A stretch of 64,000 nucleotides of DNA from the IMG/VR virus record IMGVR_UViG_3300042922_001062, positions 1 to 64,000 of that record; one strand, written 5' to 3'. The translations under genes were made by a program, and so were the position numbers. Within the stretch, counting starts at the first letter, position 1. Every line of letters begins with the position of its first letter. Below are positions 13,673 through 47,215 of the stretch, piece by piece. Source of the stretch: a virus. The notes beneath the pieces are model-generated. The model searched no databases. It was given only the letters and a program-made list of their open reading frames with translations, and was not told the origin of the DNA.

Positions 13673-13673
13673 A

Positions 13674-27158: not shown

Positions 27159-27536
27159 ATGCAGAAGCGACGTCTCAGGAACCTTCGGCCACGACTGGCA
27201 GCGGCGAAGCCTCGCCTCGGCTACGTTGAAGGTGACGCCAAGGCGCAAGACCGCCACCGCAACGCGCTGTCACCATGGCGCGCCTGGTACCACACCGAGC
27301 GCTGGCAGCGGCTGCGCCTGAAGATATTCGAGAGGGATGCCTACACCTGCCAGCGCACCGGAGAGGTCTGTGCCGGGCGGCACCCCGCCGCAAACAGCCC
27401 CGTGGCGAACCACATCCGCCCGCACAAGGGCGACCCGGCGCTGTTCTGGGATGAGGACAACCTCGAGACCGTGACCAAGGCGGTGCATGACGGCATCGTG
27501 CAGGCGGAGGAGCGGCGCGATGATACTCGCCCTTGA
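27159..27536 (+). CDS. Packaging-associated HNH endonuclease
   Basis: WY...RWQRLR..F.RD.YTCQ, ANHIRPHKGD..LFWD.DNL..H; upstream of terS. Confidence 0.8.
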   Translation: MQKRRLRNLRPRLAAAKPRLGYVEGDAKAQDRHRNALSPWRAWYHTERWQRLRLKIFERDAYTCQRTGEVCAGRHPAANSPVANHIRPHKGDPALFWDEDNLETVTKAVHDGIVQAEERRDDTRP

Positions 27537-27962: not shown

Positions 27963-28074
27963 GGGGGGAGGGTCAAAAATCGACCATGGGTCAACCTACG
28001 GACCGGCGCCCCCTACATGCAGAGATTTTTTCCTCCCTGGACAAATTTCGGGGTGCGTACCAGCACTGCGTACT
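27963..28074 (+). other. Putative cos/packaging site of the helper
   Basis: Non-coding region between HNH and terS; GGGGGGAGGGTCAAAA..GGACCGGCGCCCCCT; duplicated in the satellite. Confidence 0.7.
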
Positions 28075-28078: not shown

Positions 28079-28648
28079 ATGAGCGATCAGAACTCCACCA
28101 TCGACTGGCCGGCGATCGAGCGTGATTTTCGTGCTGGATCAATGTCTAACCGCCAACTCGCTGATTGGTACTCGATCTCGGAAGGCGCGATCCGCAAGCG
28201 GGCGAAGAAGGAAGGTTGGACGAAGTCCGGTACGCAGCCGAAAGTGCGTACCGAGAGCGCGCACCGCGCTCCTCTCGCTCCGACGCCCACAACACCGGAG
28301 ACCACTGCGCCGGAGGCCATTGTCAGCCGGGGCCGCAATCTCACGCTCCGGCTTCTCGACGAACTCGAGGCCACCACCAGCCGCATCGGCGAGCTGGAGA
28401 TGATGATTGACGCTGTAGCCGACGGTGAAGACGCAGAAGAGCAACGCAAGGTCTTGAAGCAGATCATCTCGCTCAAGCAGCGCGCTGAAATCCTGAAGTC
28501 GCTCGCGCTGTCGGCAAAGACCCTTTCCGAAACGACAACCGCCGCTCCGGCCGGCAAGAAGGCCGAGAAGCAAGCCGCTGCGGAGAGGGTGGCAAGCAAG
28601 TTCGGTGTCCGTACCCCGCCTAAGCTGGTGGTCGACAACAAGCCATGA
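28079..28648 (+). CDS. terS: Terminase small subunit
   Basis: IDW.AIE.DFRAG..S.RQLA....[18 protein letters not shown]; overlaps terL start. Confidence 0.8.
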
Positions 28649-30324
28649 AGCCGTGGTCCACTGCCTGTCCTGATTGGGAACGACGGATCGTTGCCAAGCA
28701 GTCGCTGATCCCGTTCGCGCCGCTCTTCCCGTCGGAAGCAGAAGCCGCCCTGGAGGTCTTCAAGGCGCTGAAGATCGTCGACGCTCCTGGCAGTCCAACA
28801 TTCGGAGAAGCCTGCGAGCAGTGGGTGTTCGACTTCGTCGCCGCCATCTTCGGCGCGGCGGATCCGGAGACGGGCTCCCGGCTGATCCGAGAGTTCTTCC
28901 TGCTGATCAGCAAGAAGAACAGCAAATCGACGATCGCGGCCGGCATCATGCTCACTGCCCTGATCGTCAATTGGCGCCTCTCGGCGGAGTTGCTCATCCT
29001 GGCTCCGACGATCGAAGTCGCCGACAATTCGTTCAAGCCGGCGGCCGATATGGTCCGCCACGATGAGGAACTCTCAGATCTCCTGCATGTGCAGGACCAT
29101 ATCCGAACCATCACGCACCGCGTCACCAAGGCCTTCCTGAAGGTGGTCGCTGCGGACGCTGACACAGTGTCCGGCAAGAAGGCCGCCTTCGTTCTCATGG
29201 ACGAGCTCTGGGGTTTCGGAAAGAAGCCGCGCGCTGCTGCGATGCTGCGAGAGGCGACGGGTGGTCTCGTCTCGCGGCCGGAAGGCTTCGTGATCTATCT
29301 CTCAACCCAGTCCGACGAGGAACCCGCTGGCGTCTTCAAGGCCAAGCTGGACTATTTCCGGGGCGTTCGCGAAGGCACGATTGTCGATCCGACTAGTCTG
29401 CCGGTGTTGTATGAATTTCCGGAGCCAATGGTCGAAGCGACGTCGTATCTCGACCCGGCGAACTTCTACATCACGAACCCCAACATCGGACGGTCAGTCG
29501 ATCGGGGCTGGCTGGAAGATGAATATCGCAAGATCAAGGATGCGACCGGCGGCGAGCTGCAGGTCTTCTTGGCGAAGCATCTGAATGTCGAGATCGGTCT
29601 CCGCCTCGCACAGGATCGTTGGTCAGGAGCCGGCTATTGGCCTCGCTGTGCCCACCCGGCGCTGCGCGACCTCGATGTGTTCCTGGGCCGCTGCGACGTT
29701 GTCGTCGCGGGTGGTGACGGTGGAGGTCTCGACGATCTCTTCGGGCTCGTTTTGATCGGCCGTGACCGCGATACGCGAAAGTGGCTCCTTTGGGCGCACG
29801 CGTGGGCGCATCCTGACGTGCTTGAGCGCCGACAGGAAATCGCTCCGCGGCTGCGAGATTTCGAAGCCGAAGGCTCGCTCACCATCTGCAAGCACCCGAC
29901 ACAGGATCACGAAGAGATCGCTGCCATTCTTCAGCGGGTTCATCGCGCGGGGCTTTTGCCGGAAGAAGCTGCGATTGGACTTGATCCCTTCGGCGTGACC
30001 GCTCTCATCGACGTGCTGATCGAGGCGGGCATCAGCGAAGACCAGATCATCGGTATCGCTCAGGGCTACAAGCTGAACGGCGCCGTGCTTGGCCTGGAGC
30101 GCAAGCTGGCCGACGGCACCGTCGAACATGACGGCTCGACCATGATGAACTGGGTGGTCGGCAACGCGAAGGTGCAGAAGCGCGGCAATGCCGTGCTGGT
30201 GACCAAGGAAATCGCTGGCAAGGCCAAGATCGATCCACTCATGGCGGCCTTCAACGCAACGATGCTGATGGCGCGTAATCCCGAGCCGAAGCAAACCCCT
30301 TCCTATCAGATGATCATCATCTGA
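28645..30324 (+). CDS. terL: Terminase large subunit
   Basis: [11 protein letters not shown] Walker [24 protein letters not shown]. Confidence 0.93.
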
Positions 30325-30353
30325 GGCGGCTGCGACCGCCTGGAGATCCCGAC

Positions 30354-31481
30354 ATGAACCGGATGTATTCGGTCCTCACCGTCAAGGCGGTGGAGGATGA
30401 CCAGCGCATTATCCGCGGCACCGCCACCACGCCGTCGCCGGACCGCATGGGCGATATCGTCGAGCCGCTCGGCGTGACCTTCCAGAACCCGCTGGTGCTG
30501 CTTCACCAGCACGACAGCGACCGGCCGGTCGGCACGGTCACCTTCGACAGGCCGACGGCGAAGGGCATCACCTTCGAGGCGAGGCTCCCGACGATCGAAG
30601 AGCCCGGGCCGCTGAAAGACCGCGTCGACACCGCCTGGGGCGAGATCAAGGCCGGCTTGGTCCGTGCCGTCTCCATCGGTTTCCGAGCGCTCGAATACTC
30701 GTGGATGGATGATGGCGGCATCCGCTTCATCTCCACCGAGGTGCTCGAGCTCTCTCTCGTCTCCGTTCCGGCCAACGCCGAGGCGGTGATCTCCACCATC
30801 AAGTCGATCGACGCCCCTGTGCTCGCCGCGACCGGCAAGGGGCCGAAGGCGTCCGATCGGCCTGCACCTCCCGGCGTCTCGGGGAAATCCGTCAAACCAG
30901 TGAACCTGAGGCCGAAGGAGGCCAGGACCATGAAGACCATCGCTGAGCAGATTGCTGCTCTCGAAGCGTCGCGGCAGACCAAGGCCGCGCGCATGGCTGA
31001 AGTCATGCAGAAGAGCATCGACGAGGGCCGCTCGACCGACGCCGCGGAGCAGGAGGAGTTCGACACCCTTGAGCAGGAAGTGTCCGCGCTCGACGGCGAC
31101 CTCAAGCGCCTCCGCGCGCTGGAGAAGGCGCAGGCCGCCACCGGGAAGCCGGTGATCGCCAATCAGATCCGGACGGCCGAGCAGGGCACCACCGCGCGTT
31201 CGGGTGTCACCCTGAAGTCCGCGGCGCCGGATAAGGGCATCCGCTTCGCGCGGTACGCCAAGTGCCTCGCCATCTCCACCAAGACCCATCAGTCCGTGGT
31301 GTCGGTGGCCGAGGCCATGTACGGCGGCAAGGATGACGACTTCATCGACATCGTGAAGGCCGCTGTCTCGGCGATGACCACCGGCAACACCGATGCGCTC
31401 ATCGGCAACGAGGGCGGTTTCGCCGACTTCGTGGAATTCCTCCGCCCGATGACGAGTGTCAACCAAGCGGTCGCGATTTAG
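30354..31481 (+). pseudogene. 5' part of HK97-type prohead protease-major capsid fusion, interrupted by the satellite
   Basis: Protease motifs (DRMGDIV, LHQHD, VSIGF, ELSLVSVPAN) then coiled-coil capsid N-terminus; ends 9 codons after the att repeat. Confidence 0.9.
31436..31453 (+). repeat. attL core of the satellite (18 bp direct repeat)
   Basis: ATTCCTCCGCCCGATGAC, identical to 47198-47215. Confidence 0.95.
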
Positions 31482-31501
31482 CGAACACTTTCAATATGTT
31501 G

Positions 31502-31526
31502 AGCCCGGCCGTGCGCCGGGCTTTTT
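31502..31526 (+). terminator. Rho-independent terminator just inside satellite attL
   Basis: AGCCCGGC-CGTGC-GCCGGGCT plus TTTT. Confidence 0.8.
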
Positions 31527-31629
31527 CGTTTCCGTAGTGTCCACAGCGTTCAAGAAAATCAATGGCTTACACGGGCACCCGGTGCCTCCATGCGACAAAT
31601 GAGCGACAACGTAATCGAGGGAACTGGCT

Positions 31630-31902
31630 GTGAACGCGACAAAAAAAGCCGAAGGTGAAATCCTCTACGGGGTAAAGGCCATCGCGAAGTTTCTCGGGGT
31701 GACGCGCCGGCAAGCGCAACACCTCGTCGACTCCAAGGCGGTGCCAAGCTTCAAGATGGGGCGGACGGTGTGCGCCCGGCCCGAGCGGGTGCGAAGCGTG
31801 ATTGAAGCAGCGGAGAACGGCAGGGCCGCGCCAAGCGATCAGGTGGACCAACCGCAGGACGGCGGGCAGCTTAACCTTCTCGGCGGCGGCGAACATGGCT
31901 AG
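31630..31902 (+). CDS. Excisionase/AlpA-like HTH protein
   Basis: [18 protein letters not shown]......P.FK.G.TVCAR. Confidence 0.7.
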
Positions 31903-32959
31903 CGCCAGTATGCTCCCGATCGTCACGGTGTCGAATGGCATCGTGATTGCCTCCAGCCGCGACGTGGCGGCCTATTTCGACGCAGACCATCGCGTGGTGC
32001 TGCTGGCGATCGATACGCTCATGGTTGAGGCCCCCGACGTAGCCGAGGCACACTTCCGCGAGCACCACGGCGAGGCCAGGCACTACGACATGACGCGCGG
32101 TGGCCTAGCGCTGCTGGCGCGCTCGCTGAGCGGTCCGCAGGTCGGGCGGTGGCGTGAGCGCTATCTCGAAGCCTTCGACCGCCAGCAGCGCGCGCTGGGG
32201 CAGGGCAGCGCGCTCTCGGTGCGTCAGCATCAGCCGAGTCCGTCGCCGGCGTTGGTGCCTGCCCTGCCGGACAACCTTGCCGATGGTGAGCCTCTCACGA
32301 TGTCGAGCCGGGAGATCGCCGACCTCACCGGCAAGGAGCACGACAACGTCCGCCGGGACATCAAGAACCTCGCGGATGGGCTTTCCCTCAGCTTTGAGGA
32401 AAAGTCCGAACCGTCGGCAGGCGGGCGCCCCTCGAAGGTGTTTCTCCTTCCGAAGCGTGAGTGCCTGATCCTCGTCTCGGGGTACAGCATCGAGCTGCGT
32501 GCCCGTATCATCGATCGCTGGATGGAACTTGAGGTGCGGCAGGCGGACCCGGTGGCGATGTTCAACCCGTCCGATCCGCGCATCGTGTCGGCCGTGCTGT
32601 CCCATTGGCATCAGGAGGCCACGACGGCACACGCAGCGCTTGCCAAGGCCGAGGGCACGCTGGCGCGGATCGAGACCACTGCCGGCTCTCTCTGCATCAC
32701 GGACGCTGCGAAGGCGCTCTCGCACCCGCCCAAGGCGCTGTTCGCCAAGCTCTACCGCAACCATTGGACCTATCGGCGCGGTGGCAAGGGCGATTGGCTG
32801 GGCCATGCCGACAAGTGCCGTGCCGGCCTGCTGGATCACCAGCCTACGACTTATCAGCGTGACGGCGAGACGGTGATCGGCACGCAGGTCGTCGTGACAC
32901 CCAAGGGATTGCGGAAGCTGGCCGAGCTGCTCGCTCACGATCCGGATTGGAGGGACTGA
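31895..32959 (+). CDS. Rha-family regulator with two Rha domains and a C-terminal ANT/KilA-C domain
   Basis: ASSRDVA..F...H and [31 protein letters not shown]; [16 protein letters not shown]. Confidence 0.8.
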
Positions 32960-33186
32960 TGCCCGACATCATCGACGTCGACTGGGAATGCTGTGACGCC
33001 GAGGGTGAATCCTTTGAGCACCACGCCGAGCCGGACAAGGTGGCGGAAGGCCTGCTGATCGACGAGCCAGTGCTGGTGCGCTACCCCAACGGCCGTATAG
33101 CTGATGGCAACCGCATCGTGGTGACGGAGCGTGGCCTGGAGGCGCTGAAGTCCTTCGTCATCGAGGAATCGAAGGGCAGCCACTGA
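32959..33186 (+). CDS. Small acidic hypothetical protein
   Basis: RBS GGAGG; TGATG coupling. Confidence 0.55.
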   Translation: MPDIIDVDWECCDAEGESFEHHAEPDKVAEGLLIDEPVLVRYPNGRIADGNRIVVTERGLEALKSFVIEESKGSH

Positions 33187-33377
33187 GGGGGGGAGGTCAA
33201 AAGGTCAGACGGCGTCCGTCTCTGGACCGGCGCCCCCTACATGCAGAGATTTTTTCCTCCCTGGACAAATTCGGGGTGCGTACCAGCGCCGCGTACTACG
33301 TAATATCCATATGATATCAGGCAGATAGCCTCGGTACGCACCCTGCGTACCGCGCGTACTAAGTGCGCACTGCGTAC
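33187..33377 (+). repeat. Satellite copy of the helper packaging site plus GCGTAC cluster
   Basis: 33224-33271 identical (48 bp) to 28000-28047; similarity continues to about 33297. Confidence 0.9.
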
Positions 33378-33482
33378 CACTGATAGCAGAGGCCCCGGGG
33401 GGGTATGCGGAACGTCAGGGACGCCCTTCTCTGCACCGGCGGCCTCACCAAAACTCTCGCAAAGCCAGATTGAGGTCCCGGA

Positions 33483-33854
33483 ATGTCTAATCTGGCTTCC
33501 GAGATGAGCTTCGCGGCGCGCGTCGATGAGCGCGAGCGGATGATGCTGCAGGCGATCAGCCATGCGGGATGGTGGATGTCGCCCGACGGCCGGATCGGCG
33601 AACGGGATGCCGCGGCGCTCCTGGGGTACGGACACCCGGATTCATTCCGGAACGCGAGACGTCGCGCGGATCCTGGTGGGTGGCCACGTGTATTTCGCCT
33701 CGGCGGGAACGGAAACAAGCTGACCTATCAGGTCCGAGATCTGGCGGAGTTCGTCGAGCGCAAAGCAAATCCGCCGGCCGAAACCTACGATATTTTCCGC
33801 AAAGTCAATCGCGCGGGATCGGCGCTCTCCGACGCCCGTCGTAAGCTTGCTTGA
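33483..33854 (+). CDS. Hypothetical HTH-like protein
   Basis: ERDAAALLG..SFRN.R..P......YQVRDLAEFV. Confidence 0.55.
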   Translation: MSNLASEMSFAARVDERERMMLQAISHAGWWMSPDGRIGERDAAALLGYGHPDSFRNARRRADPGGWPRVFRLGGNGNKLTYQVRDLAEFVERKANPPAETYDIFRKVNRAGSALSDARRKLA

Positions 33855-34903
33855 CCTTGATAAGGAGCGAGCTGATGCGCATCAATTCCGCCGGACACCT
33901 GCCCGCGATCATGGGCTTTCTCGCCCGGGCGCACCTTGCCGGTGTTTCGCCCTTGGAGATCGCGGCGAAGGATGGTGCTCCGCCCGACCTTCAGCTCCTC
34001 GTCAGGGCTGCGACCGGTGCCGTCATGCTCGGCGACGTCGCTGCTGCTGGCGCGCTGCGCGCGGCGGTCGAAACCTTCATCGGGACGCTGCGCGGGCGCT
34101 CCATATTCTACACGCTCCTCGCTGATGGCGCGTTCGTCCGCGCGCCGATCCGCACACGGCTCACAGCAGTCGAGAACGGCGTGGTCGCCTACGTCGTGAG
34201 CGAGGGGCGTGCGAAGCCGGTTTCGAGGATCGGGCTCGACGCCGCGGGACTGGAACGCGCCAAGGCCACTTCGCTCATCGTGCTGACGCGCGAGGCTGTG
34301 TACGCATCCTCGCCGGCGCTGCTCGACTTCCTGACCTCTGAGCTGCAGGGCGCGGTCTCGGCGGCCGTCGACGCGGCCTTCATCGCAAGGATCATCGACG
34401 ACGGCTCGCCGAGCCTCACGCCGACCTTCAGCGCGTCGGGAGCGGGCATCGACGACATCAGGTTTGACCTCCGGCGACTGCTCGACGCCGTGAACGTCAC
34501 GGGCAGCGGCCATCTGGCATGGCTGATGTCGGCAGACGTCGCGAACCGCCTCGCCGTGCTCGTGGAGCACTTTCCCGGTATGGCGCCGAACGGTGGGACA
34601 TTGCTCGAGCAGCCGGCCTTCGTTTCCGAGGCCATCGACCCGGGCTCGCTGCACTGCCTCAACGCCGCGTCGATCGCGGCGGACAGCGAGGCCATCATCG
34701 TGCGGTCCAGCGACGTCGCCAGCGTCGTTATGGATACCGCCCCAGCGCAGGACAGCTCCACGCCGGCGGCGACGCAGAACGTGTCGATGTTTCAAACCAA
34801 CTCGACCGCCGTGCTCGCGGAGGCGTTTTTCGGAGCGCAACGGGTGCGGCCGAACGCGCTGGCGACGCTGACGGACATCGCCTGGGGCGACGTGGCCTCA
34901 TGA
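33851..34903 (+). CDS. Satellite-encoded HK97-fold capsid protein homologue
   Basis: VSEGRAKPVS, WLMS, VSMFQTNSTAVLAE align with helper WVGEGKGKP, WVMS, VSMFQTNSVAFRAE. Confidence 0.85.
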   Translation: MTLIRSELMRINSAGHLPAIMGFLARAHLAGVSPLEIAAKDGAPPDLQLLVRAATGAVMLGDVAAAGALRAAVETFIGTLRGRSIFYTLLADGAFVRAPIRTRLTAVENGVVAYVVSEGRAKPVSRIGLDAAGLERAKATSLIVLTREAVYASSPALLDFLTSELQGAVSAAVDAAFIARIIDDGSPSLTPTFSASGAGIDDIRFDLRRLLDAVNVTGSGHLAWLMSADVANRLAVLVEHFPGMAPNGGTLLEQPAFVSEAIDPGSLHCLNAASIAADSEAIIVRSSDVASVVMDTAPAQDSSTPAATQNVSMFQTNSTAVLAEAFFGAQRVRPNALATLTDIAWGDVAS

Positions 34904-35727
34904 GCAGGGTCGATCCCGCTACCGCAGCAGCGCTGAATAAAATTGACGTCCGCGTCGCGGAGATCGACGCCGCGCTCAAACGCCTCGACGCTGATGACTA
35001 CAAGCACTTCAAAGATTTGCACCGCGCCGGTGCAAACGAGAAGGTGCGGCAGCAGCTCAACGCGGAACGCGCGGTGCAGATGCACAACCGGGCGCGGGTG
35101 CTCGCAGGCGAGCCGGTTGAACAGCCAGCACCCACGGAGCAGGCCAAGGCACTGCGGCTGCCGCCGGTGGAGCTCTATGGCAAGGCCGAGCGACCCTGCA
35201 GAATCGAGCCAGCCATTACCCGCAGAGACGACTTGGTCGGCGTTGGCGATAGAACCGCCGATGAGATTCTCGATGTCGCCGAAGTTGAAGAGCGCGTGTC
35301 AGCGGACATCGCGCAGGCGATCGAGGTCGCCCACGCCAAGATGCGGGAGGCAATGACGCGCAATCCCACGTACGCGTTCGACTTGTCGACGCTGATCATG
35401 CTGAAGACCACCATCATCCAGGCGATGGCGCAGGCGACAATCATCGAAGCCGTCGGCGGTGTGCTGCGGCGCGAGCTCGAGGTGAAGCTCACCGATCGGA
35501 TCGCAGTGCTGGAAAAGCGGATCGAGGAGTTTGAGCGCGGCGGCTTCGAGTATCGCGGCATCTATCAGCGCGCCCAAGCCTACAGACGAGGTCAGGTCGT
35601 CACCCATGACGGAAGCATGTGGGTGGCCGCCAAGGACACCGTGCTGCCGCCGGGCGCGCCGGAAGGCATGAACGAGTGGACTTTGGCCGTTAAGCGTGGC
35701 CGGGACGGGAAGGACGCCACCCGATGA
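34900..35727 (+). CDS. Satellite homologue of the helper post-portal protein C-terminal domain
   Basis: YRGIYQ..Y.RG..VTHDGSMW..WTLAVKRGRDGKD vs helper YRGVFK..GDTVTWAGSLW..WTLAAKRGRDGKE. Confidence 0.8.
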   Translation: MSRVDPATAAALNKIDVRVAEIDAALKRLDADDYKHFKDLHRAGANEKVRQQLNAERAVQMHNRARVLAGEPVEQPAPTEQAKALRLPPVELYGKAERPCRIEPAITRRDDLVGVGDRTADEILDVAEVEERVSADIAQAIEVAHAKMREAMTRNPTYAFDLSTLIMLKTTIIQAMAQATIIEAVGGVLRRELEVKLTDRIAVLEKRIEEFERGGFEYRGIYQRAQAYRRGQVVTHDGSMWVAAKDTVLPPGAPEGMNEWTLAVKRGRDGKDATR

Positions 35728-35943
35728 AAGAGCAAGCCGTCGCCCTAACGAAGCGGTGCGTTGCGGCCTTCGTCGAGAAGATGGGCAGGCAGCCGGATGC
35801 GCACGAGCTCGATCTGCTCGCTGCGGCCGCGTGCCGGCATCTCCAAGACCGCGAGCACATGCGCCGATGGCCCGCCGCGACGGCGTCCGGATCTTCCACG
35901 GTGAACTAGCTCAAGCCTAGACCTCATAGCCTTAGGTGAGGCG

Positions 35944-36234
35944 ATGCCAAACTCAGAGATGCTCACAACTTACTCCCATGGTACCGTTTCAGTGACCAAG
36001 GGATCAAAGACCGTCCGGGGCAAAGGCGTTTTCTGGCTGGACGTGCGGTCGTGCGACAGCCTCGAAGCCGGGGACCGCTGCCTCACCACCATCGCCTCAG
36101 TAGACGCGACCGATTTCACCACATTGGAGCTTGCTGTGCCTTGGTGCGGCGAGACAGCGGAGGACGTCCCTTACGTGATCCGCTTCGACGCTCCGCAGCG
36201 ATTTCCCGGCTACAGGGGGCGCGCCGATGGCTGA
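35944..36234 (+). CDS. Stand-alone tail-fibre N-terminal domain
   Basis: YS.GTVSV..TIAS..LELAV..DVPYV.RFDAP shared with 36227. Confidence 0.65.
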   Translation: MPNSEMLTTYSHGTVSVTKGSKTVRGKGVFWLDVRSCDSLEAGDRCLTTIASVDATDFTTLELAVPWCGETAEDVPYVIRFDAPQRFPGYRGRADG

Positions 36235-37324
36235 CCTCTACAGCACCGGCACCGTCTCGGTGCCCAGCGGTGGCACGACTGTTACGCTGACCGGGGGGCT
36301 CTTTAGCGGTGTTCTCGCCGGCGATACGATCGAGATCGGCGAGCTTCCCGCGAAGACGATCGCATCGCCGACCGACGCCAGTCATCTGGAACTGGCCGTC
36401 GCGGTGACGTCCGATCAGGTGGATGTCCCCTATGTGCTTCGCTTCGACGCCCCGTCGCGCTTCACCTCCGGCTATCTCGCGGAGCAGGTGCGGGCGCTGA
36501 TCGCGCAGGCGGGCATCATCAAGGCCGCCCGGCCAAACTACGAGGTGCAGAGCCTCGGCGGCAACGCACCGCCTGGCTCTCCTGTGACGGGAGACATGTA
36601 CGTCGTCGGCACCGCGCCGACCGGCGCATGGGCTGGGCGGGCGAATAATTTGGCGCAGTGGACCGGCTCGGCGTGGCTGTTCACAGCGCCGGATCGAGGA
36701 ACGACGGTCGTTAGCGTGGCGACGGGTATTGTGTCGATCTGGGGCGGCGCGGCGTGGCTACCTTACATAGGCCCTGGCGCTTTCATGCAGACGCTGATGC
36801 CGGCGGCGACGCAGGCCGCGGCGCAGACTACGCTTGGGCTCGATAGGGCCGCCCGCACGCTCTGGACGGCGGATATCTCCACTCCTGTCGCGGCGATTAA
36901 CGTCCCGCTCGCGGCGGCGTATCGGGCGTTCAAGCTGACCATCGGCTGCCTCACCGGCTCGGATGCGACAGCCAACTTGATACACCGCATCAGCCGCGAC
37001 GGGTCCACGGTCGACACGGGTGCATCGGACTATCAGGGGTCTGCGCTTGTTGTCGTGGGTAGCGGAGTTTCCGCGGCGGCGCGGACGGCGTCGGATGCGT
37101 TTCTCGGCACGTTGACGGCCACGATGGTAGCAATGGACATCACGCCTGGCGCGGCCGGTCTGCCGTACATGTGCACTTCCCAGTCTATGGAGTTCGCCTC
37201 TGGATATCGTCTTGATTTCCGCGGTACCCGTGCCGCGAATGTCGGGCGCGCTCAGTTCATCCAGATCTACCCGTCAGCCGGCAATCTGACTGCTGGGACG
37301 CTGACGCTGGCCGGGTATCCGTGA
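36227..37324 (+). CDS. Tail fibre / receptor-binding protein with DUF2793
   Basis: APPGSPVTGD.YVVG..PTGAWAG....LA.W...AWLF.AP. Confidence 0.75.
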   Translation: MADLYSTGTVSVPSGGTTVTLTGGLFSGVLAGDTIEIGELPAKTIASPTDASHLELAVAVTSDQVDVPYVLRFDAPSRFTSGYLAEQVRALIAQAGIIKAARPNYEVQSLGGNAPPGSPVTGDMYVVGTAPTGAWAGRANNLAQWTGSAWLFTAPDRGTTVVSVATGIVSIWGGAAWLPYIGPGAFMQTLMPAATQAAAQTTLGLDRAARTLWTADISTPVAAINVPLAAAYRAFKLTIGCLTGSDATANLIHRISRDGSTVDTGASDYQGSALVVVGSGVSAAARTASDAFLGTLTATMVAMDITPGAAGLPYMCTSQSMEFASGYRLDFRGTRAANVGRAQFIQIYPSAGNLTAGTLTLAGYP

Positions 37325-37370
37325 CGCCCGCCGCCGGGCTTCGAGGTGGTGGCTCGGCGGTCAGATATGA

Positions 37371-37396
37371 AAAAGGCCGCCCCGAAGGGCGGCCTC
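37371..37396 (-). terminator. Terminator of 37410..37727
   Basis: AAAAAGGCCGCCCCGAAGGGCGGCCT. Confidence 0.7.
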
Positions 37397-37409
37397 TCTC
37401 ACCGTCCGG

Positions 37410-37727
37410 CTAGCACGGTGTCTGCTTATTGGTGCAATCGCGACGGCCGTCATCCGAATTGCCGCTGCCGGCGGCCTTGGCCTCGCCGGGGTTCATGGAG
37501 TTGTTGCGCCCCTCGCTGGGCATGGTCGATTTCGGCACACCGGAGCCAACGGCCGGGGACTGGTCCTTGTAGCGGCTCTCGGTGGTGCCCGAGCTATTGT
37601 CGGAGCCGGTTGTAGCTCCCGCCGTGGAACCCGAGTTCCCTTGGCCGCTGCTCTGGGCCATCACAGGTGTGCCGAGCGCCAGTAATGCTGCCAGCGTGGC
37701 GATGGAAGTCGTCTTGGCATAGTTCAT
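37410..37727 (-). CDS. Small secreted low-complexity protein (moron)
   Basis: Signal peptide (..LLALGTPVMA); RBS GAAGGAGG. Confidence 0.7.
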   Translation of the reverse strand: MNYAKTTSIATLAALLALGTPVMAQSSGQGNSGSTAGATTGSDNSSGTTESRYKDQSPAVGSGVPKSTMPSEGRNNSMNPGEAKAAGSGNSDDGRRDCTNKQTPC

Positions 37728-37751
37728 GAGTTCCTCCTTCGATATGAGGCG

Positions 37752-37776
37752 AACCCACAGCTCTAGATGACGTTCC
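37752..37776 (-). promoter_or_regulatory. EcfG-type promoter
   Basis: Minus strand GGAAC-N16-GGTT. Confidence 0.65.
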
Positions 37777-37941
37777 GACCAAATTGGCCGCTGAGGTACA
37801 CGGCTAATGCACCTCGCGCCAACGTGAGCACTTTCCTGCCAGGCGGCTATGTCGATTTATTCCTTCCGCGAATCGTCAATCATCGCCTCGATGGCCCCGA
37901 TCATCACTTCGAGGTCGGCGATCAGATGCAGTAACGATTTG

Positions 37942-38055
37942 CTCGACTTCCGCGGCACCCGCATCGCCAATCCAGGCCGTGCGCAGTTCATCCAGATATA
38001 CCCGTTCGCCGGTAATCTGGCAGCCGGCCCTCTCACGCTGAAGGACATTCTGTAG
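37942..38055 (+). pseudogene. Relic second copy of the tail fibre 3' end
   Basis: LDFRGTRIANPGRAQFIQIYPFAGNL vs LDFRGTRAANVGRAQFIQIYPSAGNL. Confidence 0.8.
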
Positions 38056-38066
38056 GAGCATCTCAC

Positions 38067-38504
38067 ATGAACATTCTGGACGTCGACGGCGTGATCAAGC
38101 CGGCCGACCCCGCCTGGATCGCCCAGCGCGCGCTTGACGCCCTCCCGGTGGCTCCGACGCCAGCGGACGTCATCGCCGAGCGCGAGCGGCGCCTGGCCCT
38201 CGGATTCGCCTACGACTTCGAAGACGAACGCGGCGTGCACCACATCGCGACCACCCCGGAAGACATGAAGGGCTGGGACGAGGTGACCATGCTCGCCAAC
38301 GCCGCCATCAATGCCGGCGTGGCGGCGACCGAGATCCTCATCCTCACCAGCACCGGCCCGGTCACCGTGACGGCCGCCGAGTGGCAGCAGGTGCTCCTCG
38401 CCTCGGCGAACTTCCGCCAGCCGATCTGGCAGACCAGCTTCGCGCTGCAGGCGATGGACCCGATCCCGGCTGACGTCACCGACGACGTGCACTGGCCGGA
38501 TTGA
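38067..38504 (+). CDS. DUF4376-like tail fibre assembly protein
   Basis: DV.AERERRLALGF..PIPAD..DD.HW; RBS AGGAG. Confidence 0.65.
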   Translation: MNILDVDGVIKPADPAWIAQRALDALPVAPTPADVIAERERRLALGFAYDFEDERGVHHIATTPEDMKGWDEVTMLANAAINAGVAATEILILTSTGPVTVTAAEWQQVLLASANFRQPIWQTSFALQAMDPIPADVTDDVHWPD

Positions 38505-38708
38505 CCTCCCAAGCGCCGCACGGTCATGACCGCTCGAGTTGATGGGCCGCGCTTGGTCTATTCGGGCACGAGGAAAGCCCAGCAGAATCCTGATTATCCA
38601 CCACTGGCCGGAAGAGATCGGAAAGGCCGCTGGCCACGGCAGTAGCGGCTTGAACAAGTCTCGCCCGGCGCGCCACAATTGCGGATGGGCATCCGAATCT
38701 GTACCGAC

Positions 38709-39356
38709 ATGCAATGCGTCGTCGACTGGCTCTACACGTGGCAGACGCTCATCTCGGGCGTGTTGGCACTGGGGGCGGCGGCGATGACTGTGGGGCTTCT
38801 GCGGATCCAGATCGAGGACGAGCGCGCCCGACACCGTTCCCAGCGGATAGCTAAGACATTGGCGGCCCGAGCGACGTTGCCAGATGCCCTGAGCGACATC
38901 GCGCGATACACCCGGGAGTGCATGGCTTATCTCGTCGGCAAGCGAGCCGAGCCACCGTTGGCGCCGGCCGACGGGATAGCCGCGATCAAGGGCGCAATTG
39001 AATTCTGCGATGGCGACCCGGCCACCGCTCTCTTCGCTCTCGCCAGCTATTATCAAGTCCAACGAGCCCGGCTGGCGGAACATCGAGTTCGCCGAGGTCC
39101 AGAAAATCTGGACCGAATGCGAGATTGTGCGCACCTCAGAGCGCTGAGCGATCGGCTATTCGATTACGCTCGAGGAGAAGGCCTCGATGTTCGGACGGGT
39201 CGGCCGGATCCTGAAGAAGTTGTGAGGGCACTTGGCCAGATCGTCGGGCCTGGACCCATGATGACTCGTCCGAACGAACGTGCTCGGCTCGAGGCCTGGA
39301 TAAGAGGCACTCCCTTACGCCCCGACGACGAAGATGAGGCCGAGGAAGACGAGTAG
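38709..39356 (+). CDS. Membrane-anchored hypothetical protein
   Basis: WQTLISGVLALGAA TM segment. Confidence 0.6.
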   Translation: MQCVVDWLYTWQTLISGVLALGAAAMTVGLLRIQIEDERARHRSQRIAKTLAARATLPDALSDIARYTRECMAYLVGKRAEPPLAPADGIAAIKGAIEFCDGDPATALFALASYYQVQRARLAEHRVRRGPENLDRMRDCAHLRALSDRLFDYARGEGLDVRTGRPDPEEVVRALGQIVGPGPMMTRPNERARLEAWIRGTPLRPDDEDEAEEDE

Positions 39357-39566
39357 ACGTCGGCTTGGCGGGTGCTCGCCTCCACGGTCTCTCTCGATCC
39401 CCGATGCCGCCGAATTGACACTGCTGCCGATCATGATGAACGTGTAGTGGCGGCGTAGGCGCCATGCCGGGCGAGAGCCTCGGCCTGGCCCTGCAGATCC
39501 TGACGGCTTTCCTATTCGGAGCGGAACAGGAGTAGGGACTGCCTCAGAGAATCTTGATTTACGTCC

Positions 39567-39632
39567 CTATAGTCCGGCCGCCTTGCGGAGCGCGGCATTG
39601 ATGCGATCCTGCCAGCCTGGCCCGTCCGAAGA
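39567..39632 (-). pseudogene. BrnA-like antitoxin C-terminal remnant
   Basis: Reads DGPGWQDRINAALRKAAGL-stop; no start codon, in-frame stop upstream. Confidence 0.65.
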
Positions 39633-39647
39633 CGAACCTTAGTTCGT

Positions 39648-42077
39648 TCAGGCAGCCGCAGGCTTTTGCCGAGCCACGTACATTGCCATAGGCACGCACG
39701 GCAAATGGTGATTCGAGCTCGACATGAGGAGCAATCGGTTCACGTTGTTGTCCTGGAACCCGCCGATCCGTATCACCGATTGCAGCCATCCGATGGAATG
39801 CGGCACTCTGGCCTTCTTGATAAGGCGTTGGATGGCTGTCCTACTTCGGGAATGTCGCGCCGCCAATTGCGCTTCGAAGTTTGGCTTCACTTCTTCCGCC
39901 TTCAGAGACTTTAGGTAGTTGAACGTGCGACGGATCACCGATCGGAACTCGACGAATTCAGGTGCTTCTCTCAAGCTAAGGATATCGTCGCACTGGGTCG
40001 GAAACTCCAGTGGGGCTGACCGGATGTCTGCCGCAAGCGAATGTAGCGTCGATGAAGTTCCCAAATAGCGGCGGTTCAAAGCTGCGTTCAGCTCCAGCCA
40101 ACGATGCTTGCTGTCAGTGAGGATCTGCGCCCCCGTGGCTTGCGCCAAATACATGGCGATTTCGAAGTTGGGTGCCAACTTCATGAGCTGGATCTGTCCA
40201 CCTGTTTCGGGAGCCAAGCTCTCCGGTTGGAGCACGGCAAGCGGGTCGGCCTCTCGGAGCTGGCCGATTTGCGGCATCAGTTCGTCGAGATCGACTGTTT
40301 CGCCCTGCGGCATTGCTCGAGCGATCTGATTGCGTAGCCCCTCTTCGGACAAAGCGAGGAGTGTGCGCTTGAAGTCGTCGCGCATCAGTTCCTCCATCCG
40401 AGGGTCGTTTGAAATCTCGAACTCAAGGCCGGATGCCCGCGCCCTGGCCATCGCCATCATTTGATCGCGCAGGTGGATGTCGAAGTCACAAGGATCGGGG
40501 ATCAGGTTGACCAGACCCGCCTCGACCAACGGCATCATGCTCACGAAGAAATGGATCGTCTTCAACAGTTCGCCCCGGTACTGACCCGGGTGCTCGGTCG
40601 GACGGAATTTCTTATTCAGGGTGCCGGGGTGGACGAAAGGGTGCTGAATCAGCATTTCACCGAAATACAGCGGCGAACCAATCGCGAATTCGTTGATGTG
40701 CTGGGGATGGAGGGAGCCGGTATAGACCGATCGAAGCTGCCCGTCCGGCTTTGGGAGTAAGTCGAGCAGGTCGGTTTCCAGTGGCCATAGGCCTTCGTAA
40801 AGGCTATAGGCACTTGCAATCTTTTCGTCGGTCATCTCGCGCCGAACTTGGGTCCAGTCCTTTCTGTCCAGTTCAAGGAGGTTCGACAAGCCGCGGAGAA
40901 GCATAAGGTTTCGCTCGCGGATGCTCCTAGCCGTCCAGCTCGGCCTTAGCTCGGATGGCTTCGGCTCGCAGCATCTGGCGAAGAGGTCGCCGGACCCACA
41001 ACCACAAGAGTCCTTCGGTTTCAGCGGTGACACCGGCAGATCCTTTTGAAGGAACGCGCGCGGCTTTTCTGACCGGCCAAACTCATCCTGATAGTGAACA
41101 TGTCCGCTGTCGAATTTGGCAAACATTTCACCGCCAAAAAGGTGGAGTTCGGTCTCTGGTGGTCGTAGTGTCTCCCGCAACTCCTTCCAAGATTTCTTCA
41201 CCGTTTTCTCTGGATAAAGCCATGCCTCGCGTCCAGCAGCGATGTATCTTTCGGAGCGAGCCTTGAGGATGAAGTTGATCTCCGAGACTTGTTGATCATC
41301 GAGTTCGCGAGACCGGATGAAATCGATCGTCGATACCATCGTCGGATGAAAGTTCCGAGCGAAGGTCCGGTTCTCAAGCGGATTCACGTCCGGGTTCTTT
41401 GCATACTCAAGATTTGTCAGGATCAGGCAGTGGTCTGGTCCCAGAGGGAAGATGGTCTGCGAACCTTTCCATGCAATTGCCGGATCGTCGGTTTGGTCGC
41501 AACCAAGGTCTGCGGGAGGAGCAGCATAGTTATAAATCGTTACCGGATGGTCGGTAATGATGAACTTGACAGAGGCATTTCCCGCCGAGACAATCTCCCG
41601 GACGCCAGTGGTCCAAATGGTACAATTGAGAAAACGAATACCCTGCATCTCAAGCATAAGCTCATTCTGGGAAAGCTCAGGGTACTGTCGCTTTAGCCAC
41701 TCTAGGCCCTTTGGAGTGCGAAGCTTTTGGATGTCGATATACTCGAAAAAGGTCTTGAAGTGGGAGTGCCATGCGGCCTTGTCCAAGCCAGAGAGGGCGC
41801 GGACCGCGTCCGCGCCGCGGGTGTCAATGTCGCCGAATAGTTGTCGCTCGATTTCATCGTTTACCGCCGTTCCAAAGAATGTTGAATAAAGATCCCTTTG
41901 AACGAACGCACGGGATGTTGGAGAGTCAAACAATGACCGCCCTGTGTTTTTTCCTCCATCCCTCCGTGTGAAAATCGGCGGTGACAAGTCGAGATAGAAT
42001 AAGGTTCTGCCTCCGTCGGTGAGGAAGCGTTCTTGATACCATTGGGGAACGTAGTGATTATTTCTTCTTACTGACAT
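39648..42077 (-). CDS. DUF4238 plus SEC-C motif protein (candidate anti-phage)
   Basis: NNHYVPQWY, FIITDHPV, IFPL.PD.CL; CGCGSG..F..CC; lower GC. Confidence 0.75.
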   Translation of the reverse strand: MSVRRNNHYVPQWYQERFLTDGGRTLFYLDLSPPIFTRRDGGKNTGRSLFDSPTSRAFVQRDLYSTFFGTAVNDEIERQLFGDIDTRGADAVRALSGLDKAAWHSHFKTFFEYIDIQKLRTPKGLEWLKRQYPELSQNELMLEMQGIRFLNCTIWTTGVREIVSAGNASVKFIITDHPVTIYNYAAPPADLGCDQTDDPAIAWKGSQTIFPLGPDHCLILTNLEYAKNPDVNPLENRTFARNFHPTMVSTIDFIRSRELDDQQVSEINFILKARSERYIAAGREAWLYPEKTVKKSWKELRETLRPPETELHLFGGEMFAKFDSGHVHYQDEFGRSEKPRAFLQKDLPVSPLKPKDSCGCGSGDLFARCCEPKPSELRPSWTARSIRERNLMLLRGLSNLLELDRKDWTQVRREMTDEKIASAYSLYEGLWPLETDLLDLLPKPDGQLRSVYTGSLHPQHINEFAIGSPLYFGEMLIQHPFVHPGTLNKKFRPTEHPGQYRGELLKTIHFFVSMMPLVEAGLVNLIPDPCDFDIHLRDQMMAMARARASGLEFEISNDPRMEELMRDDFKRTLLALSEEGLRNQIARAMPQGETVDLDELMPQIGQLREADPLAVLQPESLAPETGGQIQLMKLAPNFEIAMYLAQATGAQILTDSKHRWLELNAALNRRYLGTSSTLHSLAADIRSAPLEFPTQCDDILSLREAPEFVEFRSVIRRTFNYLKSLKAEEVKPNFEAQLAARHSRSRTAIQRLIKKARVPHSIGWLQSVIRIGGFQDNNVNRLLLMSSSNHHLPCVPMAMYVARQKPAAA

Positions 42078-42134
42078 TGCCCTTTAGCATCGCTCCCGCC
42101 GCTAGTTGCTGCAATTCTTACCGGCTTGGGCGAA

Positions 42135-43397
42135 TTAAGGATGGCCTCGCAGCGCGATCATCTTGTTCGCGACACGGGCGGCCAAGTCGGAATGAAACTC
42201 CTCAAGGCTCTCCGCGGCTTCGATGAGGGCTTCGTCGGCACCGTCATCGTCCATCGCTTCGACCAGCTGCTCGACCTGTTGCGCAAGCTCTTCGAGCGCC
42301 TGATAGAGCCGGGTGCATTGGTCCAGAGTGAGCGACGGGTCGGCGAGGGCAGCGGGGACATCCTTGGCGAGATGCTTCGCCCTCTCGCCGCGCTCGCGCA
42401 GCAAAGTCATCCAGTCCGTCGCCATGTCGACGCGCTCCAGCAAAGCCGTCAGCTCCGCCCGTTTCAGGGTCGCCTCGATAGTGGTCTCCTTCAACGCAGG
42501 TCCGCCGGGGCGGTGGGGGGACGTGACGGCCGCCCGAACGGCCAGTGCGCTCGATGGTGGCGCAGCGCCGATCGTGGCCATGAAATCCCCTTCGGGCACG
42601 ATGCGCACGATATGGCCGGCGGCGAGCATGGCTTCGGCCTTGAGGTGCTTCGCGCTCTTGGGCGTGCCGAAATGCACGTCTCGATCGCCGAGCACGAGCA
42701 TGGTGGTGTGGCGGGTGACGCCCGGATGAACGTCGGCGCCAGCGGCCGCGGCAAGATCGGCCGCGGCGCTCTTGCCGAGCTCCAGCTTGCCGGTGAACAC
42801 CACGACCTGGCCCGACAACGGCCCGTCGCCGACAGCCTCTCGGCGGATCGGAGCCGCCTTCTCGCCGGAGACCGGCAGTTCAACGCGGCGGAACCAGCCG
42901 TCCAGGTCCAGGCCGGTTTCTTCCATGGCGCGGTGCAGGATCACGCCGGCGGCGCGCGCGTCCTCAAGAGCGTCGTGGTGACGGAAGGCGATGCCGAACT
43001 CGGCGGCAATGATCGGCAGGCTGTAGCTCGCCCTGTCGGGCCATGCCCGCCGGGCGACGCGGATTGTGTCGAGCCAGCGGTTGCCGACGGATGCCAAGCC
43101 ATGGCGATCGCAGGCCCGCATCAGCGACGTCCGGTCGAAGGGTCCATGGCTGATAACGGGCCGGTCACCGAGAGCATTGAGAAGCCAGTCGTGCCGGTGG
43201 CGGAAGGGCAGGCACCCCGCGACGGCTTCCTCGTCGATGCCATGAATGCCGACGTTAAAGGCGTCGAAATAGTCCTCCGGGTCGATGAGGTGACATTCGG
43301 CGTGGATCTCTCTGCCGCCATCGAACACGACGACGCCAAGCTGGCAGATGCTGCTGTAGTTCGCGTTCGCGGTTTCTACATCGATCGCGACGAACAT
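42135..43397 (-). CDS. DEDDh 3'-5' exonuclease with BRCT domain
   Basis: FVAIDVETAN, HHDALEDA; GQVVVFTG.L..VT..TT.LV.G. Confidence 0.85.
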   Translation of the reverse strand: MFVAIDVETANANYSSICQLGVVVFDGGREIHAECHLIDPEDYFDAFNVGIHGIDEEAVAGCLPFRHRHDWLLNALGDRPVISHGPFDRTSLMRACDRHGLASVGNRWLDTIRVARRAWPDRASYSLPIIAAEFGIAFRHHDALEDARAAGVILHRAMEETGLDLDGWFRRVELPVSGEKAAPIRREAVGDGPLSGQVVVFTGKLELGKSAAADLAAAAGADVHPGVTRHTTMLVLGDRDVHFGTPKSAKHLKAEAMLAAGHIVRIVPEGDFMATIGAAPPSSALAVRAAVTSPHRPGGPALKETTIEATLKRAELTALLERVDMATDWMTLLRERGERAKHLAKDVPAALADPSLTLDQCTRLYQALEELAQQVEQLVEAMDDDGADEALIEAAESLEEFHSDLAARVANKMIALRGHP

Positions 43398-43468
43398 GGC
43401 TCCCTCCCATACCTTCCGGAAGGTTGCACATCGGCTCCGTTCACGGCAAGCGCGCCTGTTCTGCGACG

Positions 43469-44317
43469 CTACTCGGTGAGCAGCCCCGCCAAACGCCCCT
43501 TTGCGATAAGATAGCTAACAAAGGAAGCGCACGCTCCCAGCATGAACAACGCGTCAGCCTCGTCGACGTTCGCGGCGTCTTGGTCGAGCAGCGAGTGCCG
43601 TATGCCTTTCTCGTCGCTGGCATAGCCATAAAGGGCCGAGAATCCTTTCTTCATTGCCTCGTGGATGGCGCCAGCCTTTTCCAGTTTGACCAGAGCGGGG
43701 CCAAGTGTAGTCGATCCCGGCGCTAGCTGTACTGCGACCGCTTCAACAGCATGGATAGCTTCGCGCACGCAGTCCGGATACTTTCCTGCAGTGGCAGCTT
43801 CTATCGAGGACCTCAAATGGGCATAGGCGCCGGTGATGCCGACAGCGCGTGCGGACTTGAGTGCTGCTTCGAGAGCTGCAGCCTCCGTCGGATCGGTTAT
43901 GGGGGCAATAGTATCCCCGTCGACCACGCGATAAGCTGCGTGACAATTAACTAAAACGTCGGCAATATGCTTGCGGAATGCGGCTGGCGTATAATTGAAT
44001 CTTAGTATCCATTCAATAAATCCAAAAACTTCTACGTAGTCGCCGTTCTCTATAATTGTCTGAATTCGTCGTATTTGTTGAAAGTGCAAAGAAATGTATT
44101 CACTAGAGAATCTATTTTGATGAAATACAAACTCCGCCTTGAGAATTGCATTCCATGGCTCGGCAACGGTGTGGTCGCCGCGCCTTGGAAGAACATGCAT
44201 GTCGAACACGAAGAACAATTGAGCCCTCAGTTGAGGGGAAAGTTTTTTCAAGGCGAGTTGCGTTGGTAACGGTGCGCGACCTTCGGCTTGCTCAAAGGAG
44301 ACTAATTTCCTGTCCAT
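43469..44317 (-). CDS. AbiJ-like N-terminal domain plus HEPN-like protein (candidate abortive infection)
   Basis: SFEQAEG..LR..L, EVFGFIE, REAIHAVE, LYGYASDEKGIRHS; AT-rich. Confidence 0.6.
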   Translation of the reverse strand: MDRKLVSFEQAEGRAPLPTQLALKKLSPQLRAQLFFVFDMHVLPRRGDHTVAEPWNAILKAEFVFHQNRFSSEYISLHFQQIRRIQTIIENGDYVEVFGFIEWILRFNYTPAAFRKHIADVLVNCHAAYRVVDGDTIAPITDPTEAAALEAALKSARAVGITGAYAHLRSSIEAATAGKYPDCVREAIHAVEAVAVQLAPGSTTLGPALVKLEKAGAIHEAMKKGFSALYGYASDEKGIRHSLLDQDAANVDEADALFMLGACASFVSYLIAKGRLAGLLTE

Positions 44318-44346
44318 GATCCGCCCCACTTCCAATGCGTGGCAAC

Positions 44347-44549
44347 CTGCCATTGGAGTACCGGCAGCGCAATGAGCGCCTTCGCGATCCCCTCTTGGCG
44401 GAGGGGGCGAAGCAGCGCATAAATGGGATTGGGCTTGAACACCCGGACGAAAGTTATAGCGCGACGCCCTTGGCGGGGCTTGGCGCCGAAGCACAGCGCC
44501 CTTGGCGGGGCGGTGTGCAAGGTCGCACCTTGGCGGGTGCGCCGGACCT
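44347..44549. ncRNA. Candidate structured RNA: four hairpins with TTGGCG loops
   Basis: Hairpins at 44389-44406, 44466-44479, 44491-44518 and 44524-44541 have different stems and the same loop. Confidence 0.6.
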
Positions 44550-44694
44550 GGCCATCATGGCCGGGAGCGGTGCGCTATGTCCAGAGGGTACGCCCTTAAA
44601 AGCGCGTCGGCCTGTAACTTTCGCAGGTGTTCAACTCCCGGCTGCCGGTCTGCTACCGGCGACGGCCTTGAACAGCCGAACGAAAGTACATCCC

Positions 44695-45090
44695 ATGAAC
44701 ATGAACGCCAGCCGGCCGAGACCGGCCAGCATCCCACCGACCGAGGTCGCGCGGAAGCTTCTCGACATCCGTCACGACCTCCAGCGCGAGCTTCAGCGCG
44801 TGGACACCCTGCTTGCAATGCTCGGCGCCCCGGTGGCGGCGGCAGGGTGTCAGCCGGACACTCCGGCGGGACGTGGCCCCAATTTCGGGGAGACGTCGGC
44901 GAGTGATCTCCTCTATGGAGCGCCAGCCATTGCGGGCTATCTTGGCCTTACCGAGAAGCAGGCCCGGCACCGTATCGAGGCGGGGAATATTCCGGCCTTC
45001 AAGATCGGCGGCACGGTGTGCGCCCGCCAATCCTCCCTGTCCACATGGCTCGCGAACCTCGAAGCCGCAGCCGCGCATGCGGAGGACTGA
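44695..45090 (+). CDS. Excisionase-like HTH protein, paralogue of 31630
   Basis: LLYGAPAIAGYLGLTEKQARH..IPAFKIGGTVCAR. Confidence 0.7.
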   Translation: MNMNASRPRPASIPPTEVARKLLDIRHDLQRELQRVDTLLAMLGAPVAAAGCQPDTPAGRGPNFGETSASDLLYGAPAIAGYLGLTEKQARHRIEAGNIPAFKIGGTVCARQSSLSTWLANLEAAAAHAED

Positions 45091-45092
45091 TC

Positions 45093-45760: not shown

Positions 45761-45891
45761 CTATCCGCCCGGCGCCGCCTCGCGCTGGCGCCGGGCATTT
45801 CGATACGACATGAGAATTTCATCAAGGCATTGAGCATGCTGGGCTTTCCCGGGCTTCCTAAAGCTGCATGCGACAACCGAGGCAAATCACC

Positions 45892-47190: not shown

Positions 47191-47197
47191 GAAAAAT

Positions 47198-47215
47198 ATT
47201 CCTCCGCCCGATGAC
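47198..47215 (+). repeat. attR core of the satellite
   Basis: ATTCCTCCGCCCGATGAC. Confidence 0.95.

Follow-up and report, generated by a model that had tools for sequence, protein, structure and literature searches.

Phage P4 and the PICIs of the EcCICFT073 type carry a cos site that is recognized by the helper terminase and have no terminase of their own. In the case of EcCICFT073, Rpp is described as redirecting helper TerS to a distinct PICI cos. In HNH-dependent cos phages, the canonical position of cos is between the HNH gene and terS.

Both cos mimicry and a helper-embedded satellite that shares the cos region of its helper have already been published (PMC10111431, PMC5052747). SaPIbov4 and SaPIbov5 have no functional terS, and the cos site of their HNH-dependent cos helpers phi12 and phiSLT is present in them as a conserved copy (PMC5052747). 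HE-PICIs, found only in Enterobacterales and with lambda-like helpers, are inserted most commonly in the capsid gene (PMC10111431). Such is Eco567.11capE (11capE) in the prophage 50icd, where the block shared by the satellite and the helper covers 258 bp at 90% identity (PMC10111431). The HE-PICIs are marked by their integrase clade (more than 400 bits to the integrase of 11capE), by int-alpA at one end, by a primase/ori zone, and by a doubled TGTATTGC around attP; for HE-PICI-related integrases, phage-gene surroundings have been found only in Enterobacterales (PMC10111431). Finally, cf-PICIs bring a complete set of head and packaging genes of their own (capsid, portal, protease, connectors, terS, and HNH) and depend on the helper for tails only (10.1101/2022.09.08.507074).

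The window considered here is the whole stretch of viral DNA that was analysed, 64,000 nt in length (positions 1 to 64,000 of IMG/VR record IMGVR_UViG_3300042922_001062). Its positions 33187-33378 (hereafter cos2) are probably, at a chance of about three in four, a functional copy of the helper cos (cos1), borne by a satellite-like element in which no terminase was detected. As judged from the sequence, the element is most likely packaged by the helper machinery.

The interrupted helper and the embedded element

The late genes of the helper lie on the plus strand in the order HNH, a 128-aa ORF, the first copy of the shared block, terS, terL, and a truncated 375-aa half of a capsid-fusion gene. 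The succession of HNH, cos, terS, and terL matches the layout of HNH-dependent (HK97-type) cos packaging.

27159..27536, plus strand, helper HNH endonuclease, the last annotated gene before cos (PHROG phrog_589, E 2.6e-23)
28079..28648, plus strand, helper small terminase terS (phrog_1206, E 2.5e-30; reading frame checked)
28645..30324, plus strand, helper large terminase terL (Pfam TerL_ATPase and TerL_nuclease; phrog_9, E 3e-123)
30354..31481, plus strand, 5′ part of the helper fused protease-scaffold-capsid gene (phrog_617 positions 10-372/626; Peptidase_S78)
47211..48089, plus strand, 3′ capsid-domain part of the interrupted helper gene, a 292-aa ORF (phrog_617 positions 368-626, E 2e-71)

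In related phages, the protease-scaffold-capsid locus is a single fused ORF. Here, the phrog_617 gene is split by the element between 31453 and 47198, and the final 8 codons of the 375-aa half, together with its stop, are supplied by the element. Joining the 5′ half in silico to 47216-48089 gives an intact 657-aa ORF. The insertion point corresponds to about position 370 of 626 in the phrog_617 profile, roughly the boundary of the scaffold and capsid domains. The portal gene comes next after the 3′ part, and after it a collagen-repeat gene (49626-51146) contains tandem 162-nt repeats at 50295-50618. Farther along the record, a lysozyme gene (68112-68780) is followed by methyltransferase and glycosyltransferase genes.

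As for the outer boundaries of the helper, a 15-bp repeat (12745/71505) would delimit a prophage of 43 kb. No integrase stands beside this repeat, and no helper integrase was recognized in positions 1-14000 of the window or 64001-79477 of the record; a tRNA-Asp (1127-1203) has no second copy in the record. Neither the cos block nor the satellite DNA occurs in any isolated phage of the collection searched.

31454..47197, plus strand, helper-embedded satellite-like element of 15,744 bp (empty site in runs X2 and X6; own integrase and att repeats)
31436..31453, plus strand, attL core ATTCCTCCGCCCGATGAC, an 18-bp direct repeat
47198..47215, plus strand, attR core, an 18-bp direct repeat matching the attL core

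The same phage, at 96-99% identity, is present with an empty site in two independent public runs, the plant metagenome X2 and the isolate X6. In their contigs, 31435 is joined straight to 47198; 18 letters at the joint are ambiguous, and each flank exceeds 255 letters. These joints are precise. The element is therefore a discrete insertion, without which the helper also occurs. The contigs of the source run (X1, a soil metagenome) showed neither an attP nor an excised-circle joint; assembled contigs drop rare forms. The attR core gives an in-frame ATG to the capsid half in the window and in Microvirga lupini, which is not so in a second Microvirga composite, from a MAG (both composites are described below). 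Repeats of the GCGACAA type lie near both att arms (31592-31642 and 47145-47163), their window-wide count being not above chance, and a tandem CGCGACAA is kept in the right arms of the Microvirga elements; either may represent arm-type integrase sites. Run X2, in which the helper site is empty, also contains a contig of low depth that matches the beginning of the satellite integrase almost letter for letter (45743-46145, with a 9-nt deletion), which suggests a related element elsewhere in the X2 community.

The integrase and most other genes of the element are on the plus strand, as are the helper late genes.

31501..31523, plus strand, intrinsic terminator after the truncated helper gene, at the left end of the element (equivalent hairpin and T-run in both Microvirga composites)
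31630..31902, plus strand, excisionase-like HTH gene (phrog_18541, E 2e-10; phrog_12527 excisionase, E 3e-4; Pfam HTH_17, E 0.002)
31802..32959, plus strand, Rha/KilAC anti-repressor-like regulator (Pfam Phage_pRha, E 1e-27; ANT, E 1e-18; phrog_63)
33483..33854, plus strand, first ORF after cos2, 123 aa, not terS-like (no Pfam or PHROG match; BLASTP against helper terS, E 0.22)
33851..34903, plus strand, HK97-fold major capsid protein homologue (Pfam Phage_capsid, E 1e-7; phrog_617 positions 312-626)
45868..47190, plus strand, tyrosine integrase (Pfam Phage_integrase, E 9e-22; phrog_1, E 5e-58)

The terminator at 31501-31523 is a strong one and would block helper late read-through into the satellite. 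The anti-repressor-like gene is separated from cos2 by a 79-aa ORF, and the capsid homologue has about 30% protein identity with the capsid part of the helper. Portal, protease, tail, lysis, and replication genes were not detected by Pfam or PHROG in the element ORFs tested; tail-fibre-like genes are present. The latter (DUF2793, DUF4376) occupy 35944-38504 and include a 99-nt internal repeat (37211-37309/37942-38040), and fragments about 92% identical to this region occur in the runs with the empty helper site. A 275-aa satellite protein (34900-35727) has its last 52 residues 48% identical to the C-terminus of the helper collagen-repeat protein.

The excisionase-like HTH genes are two paralogues, 31630-31902 and the C-terminal part of 44335-45090, which share 30 nt at 87% (31749-31778/44997-45026). 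Cargo of lower GC content (52-60% against about 65%) lies on the minus strand at 39648-44494. Its candidate defence genes encode an 809-aa DUF4238 protein, a DEDDh exonuclease with a BRCT-like tail (PADLOC PDC-S48-like), and a PDC-S32/AbiJ-N-terminal-like protein.

Two copies of a putative cos site

Positions 28000-28047 of the helper and 33224-33271 of the satellite are identical (48/48), and the similarity reaches 28074/33297 with one 1-nt indel and two mismatches. Upstream of each copy stands GGGGGGAGGGTCAAAA (27963-27978, helper) or GGGGGGGAGGTCAAAA (33187-33202, satellite), so that a G-run and then TCAAAA are found 21-22 bp 5′ of either copy. When the inserted element was compared with the rest of the window by blastn, the shared block came out as 75 bp at 96% (E 2e-27). 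A second, weak match (42 bp, 81%) fell inside the two capsid genes, and beyond these two no further meaningful DNA similarity between the element and the helper was found. Terminase genes were likewise not found by Pfam or PHROGs in the element ORFs tested (31454-47197), and tblastn with helper terS (in the correct frame) and terL returned the helper genes only and nothing in the element.

Thus, the original prediction is borne out in what it had said of the block: the 48-bp identity, the approximately 26 bp of further similarity with one indel and two mismatches, the shared upstream G-run with TCAAAA, and the location of the helper copy between the HNH gene (27159-27536) and terS (28079-28648). 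It had also called the block the sole long DNA identity between the two elements, a claim which leaves aside only the weak capsid-gene match, and had described the satellite as having no terS or terL, neither of which was found. Its reading of the block as the site through which the helper would package the satellite is, on comparative grounds, well supported.

Both sites are surrounded by copies of an 8-nt motif, YGCGTACY. The window contains 14 copies; shuffling predicts 5.05, and in none of 100 shuffles were there as many as 14. Ten of the copies sit at the two sites, four at the helper site (28054, 28067, 28229(-), and 28245, the last two within terS) and six at the satellite site (33277, 33290, 33333(-), 33344, 33353, and 33371). 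The right limit of 33377 chosen in the original prediction is accounted for by these repeats, which extend that far. The two copies of the block have the same orientation and are 5,224 bp apart in one replicon.

27963..28074, plus strand, cos1, putative helper cos region (conserved architecture in about 20 terL relatives; contig ends of relatives map here)
Parts of cos1: G-box 27963-27978; GC-rich box 28000-28013; T-run 28026-31; YGCGTACY at 28054 and 28067
33187..33378, plus strand, cos2, putative satellite copy of cos (block 33224-33297 with 48 bp identical to cos1; motif search and blastn)
Parts of cos2: G-box 33187-33202; block 33224-33297; six YGCGTACY from 33277 to 33378

About 20 terL relatives in IMG/VR (57-78% identical) keep the same order of parts: a G-box, consisting of a G-run and then TC(A/G)AAAG, followed by a variable spacer, a GACC(G/C)GCG-CCCCC box, an A/T run, and paired direct repeats immediately before terS. 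Every part of this conserved architecture is present in the satellite copy. The direct repeat is TGCGTACC here and in the relative L007, whose terS is 69% identical, and TGCGAACC, TGCAAACC, or TGGAAACC where terS is only about 40-50% identical; the repeat therefore varies with terS, the pattern expected for putative TerS-binding sites. For a conserved hairpin in the variable stretch that separates the G-box from the cut box, considered as a further part, no support was obtained (mean z -0.5; only 6 of 21 sequences below -1).

Evidence of a cut comes from contig ends. About 26 IMG/VR contigs end within approximately 1 kb upstream of terL, and nine of them, from at least 7 samples, start at one homologous nucleotide, 12-13 nt before the A/T run. 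Its counterpart is position 28014 of the window for the helper and 33238 for the satellite, in both cases immediately preceded by GGACCGGCGCCCCC. Nine coincident starts are not given by random fragmentation and thus point to a physical DNA end inside the 48-bp block, as transferred by homology from phages with 57-68% identical TerL; the evidence is drawn from assembled contigs, in which the other ends of the cos-starting contigs are fragment ends. The top-strand end is accordingly placed by us, as a prediction, between 28013 and 28014 in cos1 and between 33237 and 33238 in cos2. Cleavage had been expected near CCGGCGCCCC, and this fits, the contigs of the nine relatives starting immediately 3′ of this run (the 28014 homologue).

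In two linear contigs, G007 and G008, terL and HNH stand at opposite ends, the break falling within a few nucleotides of the homologous point, and the left end of G008 coincides with the homologous nucleotide itself. The record of the Stenotrophomonas phage Silvanus is laid out similarly, terS-terL being at the opposite end from HNH. No consistent overhang follows from the right ends of the two contigs taken with the start of the Silvanus record; the authors of Silvanus reported that PhageTerm could not map its termini. Overall, the identification of the block as a putative cos site is supported by its position, by the conserved architecture, and by the contig ends of relatives.

A search for integrase relatives in genome, viral, and metagenome contigs, together with 401 same-family genomes, returned only two composites, both from Microvirga: the isolate M. 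lupini AT3.9 and one Microvirga MAG. Their integrases are 66-67% identical to that of the window, and the same sequences are also in IMG/VR. Both elements are about 10 kb long, have their own capsid homologue, and split the homologous fused protease-capsid gene at the same EFLRP codons (the core being of 11 bp). A stop codon and then a terminator come after each truncated half. The terminases and the HNH-terS intergenic sequences of the Microvirga helpers differ from those of the window. The M. lupini element nevertheless carries a copy of the HNH-terS block of its own helper (57 bp at 96.5%), and the MAG element carries the block of its own helper twice (43 bp at 95% and 59 bp at 86%).

By global alignment, the block identity is 80-98% within a pair versus 48-64% between pairs, the latter being the background level; this covariation rests on three helper-satellite pairs. 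A block copy lies upstream of the satellite capsid gene in all three. In the MAG (L146 with L166), the copies flank the capsid homologue (extended-locus positions 10848-10890 and 13145-13202). Among 66 related phage loci, none has a comparably long, near-identical second copy, and one has a weak match of 35 bp at 83%. Moreover, the helper variant of run X2, 96% identical, differs from the window helper at 28038 and 28045, and the satellite copy does not. The satellite copy, which fits the resident helper and not the X2 variant, has therefore been kept matched by selection, by gene conversion, or by both; gene conversion alone, without selection, can homogenise two repeats in one replicon.

The satellite capsid protein has no close relative in IMG/VR; homologues at 54% and 42% identity exist, one of them from Sinorhizobium medicae. 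A profile of capsid homologues found 52 loci, none with a long direct repeat.

A model of packaging and its rivals

Upon induction, the helper would make TerS, TerL, and the HNH accessory nuclease. TerS would bind the YGCGTACY repeats that flank both sites, six in the satellite and four in the helper, and TerL with HNH would cut the identical GC-rich box, leaving a top-strand end after 28013 in the helper and, presumably, after 33237 at cos2. The satellite DNA, presumably excised by its own integrase before packaging, would be packaged cos to cos into helper-derived particles, with capsids possibly altered by the capsid homologue of the satellite, and might then be transferred. A packageable substrate could arise without a satellite replicon, the obvious route being passive replication inside the helper, as shown for HE-PICI. 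An unexcised composite would offer two cos start points of the same orientation, 5,224 bp from each other.

A further-reaching proposal, tentative and in our opinion rather unlikely, is that the helper-embedded satellites of Alphaproteobacteria are a lineage of their own, which arose by convergent evolution and splits the fused helper gene exactly where scaffold and capsid meet, and in which the own capsid protein and the helper scaffold make satellite capsids and cos2 out-competes the helper. If it is true, the satellite stop and terminator would release the protease-scaffold half free, with the helper capsid domain withheld, and the extra TerS-binding repeats would let cos2 prevail over the helper in the competition for terminase.

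The main rival to packaging by cos mimicry is transcriptional control: the block might be a late promoter or an activator or antiterminator site that co-activates the satellite capsid operon and the helper terS operon. The model for this is P4 and P2, whose late promoters answer each other's activators. In both elements a rightward structural operon does begin right after the block, and the satellite, cut off from helper read-through by the terminator at 31501-31523, needs a late signal of its own. However, no sigma-70-like promoter lies within the shared block, the contig ends of nine related phages fall inside it, and its place between HNH and terS is, like its GC-rich box, A/T run, and paired repeats varying with terS, that of a cos; the second block copy of the MAG, in addition, lies downstream of the satellite capsid gene. 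Transcriptional control is thus regarded by us as improbable. A distinctly improbable reading is that the copy serves mainly interference, either as a decoy cos that titrates terminase or as a second cut 5.2 kb into unexcised concatemers that sabotages the helper. Satellites commonly interfere with helper packaging (PMC5052747), and the two sites of the same orientation in one replicon, 5,224 bp apart, the excess of YGCGTACY repeats in the satellite over the helper, and the candidate defence genes all agree with such a role. Against it stand the integrase, the excisionase-like genes, and the capsid homologue, which are typical of a transferable satellite, as well as the presence of related elements in different helpers and hosts, which implies horizontal spread. 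A decoy effect is, besides, compatible with a role in packaging and not exclusive of it, and may add to it.

It is very improbable that the copy is a non-functional recombination scar, helper DNA captured or gene-converted and identical because the event was recent. PICI-type satellites do capture helper late-region DNA (PMC10111431), and the copy is closer to the resident helper than the 96% identical helper variant is, and is therefore young. Still, a copy confined to the HNH-terS interval recurs in three pairs, with unrelated sequences and at the same place in the satellite, which makes a scar unlikely; no flanking coding DNA was captured, and comparably long near-identical second copies were seen in 0 of the 66 related loci. 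The least credible reading, with hardly any weight, is a metagenome mis-join at a short repeat. In the source run, the repeat is precisely where the contigs break (28018-33253 and 33242-36490), which a de Bruijn graph would lead one to expect, but the architecture is shared by an isolate genome and a MAG, X2 contigs run unbroken across cos1 into terS, the empty-site joint is precise, and the alternative path through the graph would yield an implausible circle of 5.2 kb.

Comparison with known satellites

The proposed packaging of the element through a copied cos is not categorically new; it differs from the published cases by the alphaproteobacterial host group, the HNH-cos helper, and the gene content. 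If the reading is correct, cos-copying helper-embedded satellites are not confined to lambda-like prophages of Enterobacterales. The use of the same strategy by an unrelated-looking element, whose close relatives belong to Alphaproteobacteria associated with plants and soil, points to a solution that recurs. The pair-specific copies of the three pairs amount to a natural covariation experiment, which would pinpoint the packaging signal of a large, uncharacterised phage group: the G-box, the GC-rich cut box, the A/T run, and the putative TerS repeats. Microvirga lupini AT3.9 is an isolate that carries the composite, in which the model can be tested. With its candidate anti-phage defence genes, the element may also spread defence cargo from one strain to another.

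Like a cf-PICI, the satellite encodes its own capsid protein; of the cf-PICI head and packaging module, it has the capsid homologue only and therefore falls outside the cf-PICI definition. As compared with EcCICFT073, the putative TerS-binding repeats here are of the same motif as those of the helper, and no homologue of Rpp, Psu, Sid, Delta, or primase was detected in the element.

With the cos-type SaPIs, the element shares an HK97-fold capsid homologue, named Ccm in SaPIs (PMC5052747), and a further likeness is in size, cos-type SaPIs being about one third of the size of their helper (PMC5052747). Those islands differ in that they belong to Gram-positive bacteria, integrate in the chromosome and not in the helper, and possess a replication module. 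The small-capsid role of Ccm has been shown experimentally, whereas for the capsid homologue of the present element such a role is a possibility.

The likeness to HE-PICIs consists in an own capsid homologue, the lack of terS, a short block shared at the position of the helper cos, and a helper gene that becomes whole again only after the element excises. The differences concern first of all the host and the helper: the relatives of the present element are in Microvirga (Alphaproteobacteria), and its helper, a cos phage of the HNH-dependent kind, has protease, scaffold, and capsid fused in one gene. Moreover, attP here would lie between int and the excisionase-like gene, and the terminator would block read-through, in contrast to 11capE, for which passive late transcription has been proposed (PMC10111431). 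The doubled TGTATTGC motif is absent even with up to 3 mismatches allowed, the element gives no Phage_AlpA match, only the weak HTH_17 and excisionase-like ones, and no ORF tested has a primase or replication match. As these three marks were not found, the element is considered to work like an HE-PICI or a cos-type SaPI and is not filed as a member of the HE-PICIs. With its putative copy of the helper cos, no terminase genes found, and a discrete body bounded by att sites and equipped with an integrase, it has the features of a cos-mimicking satellite.
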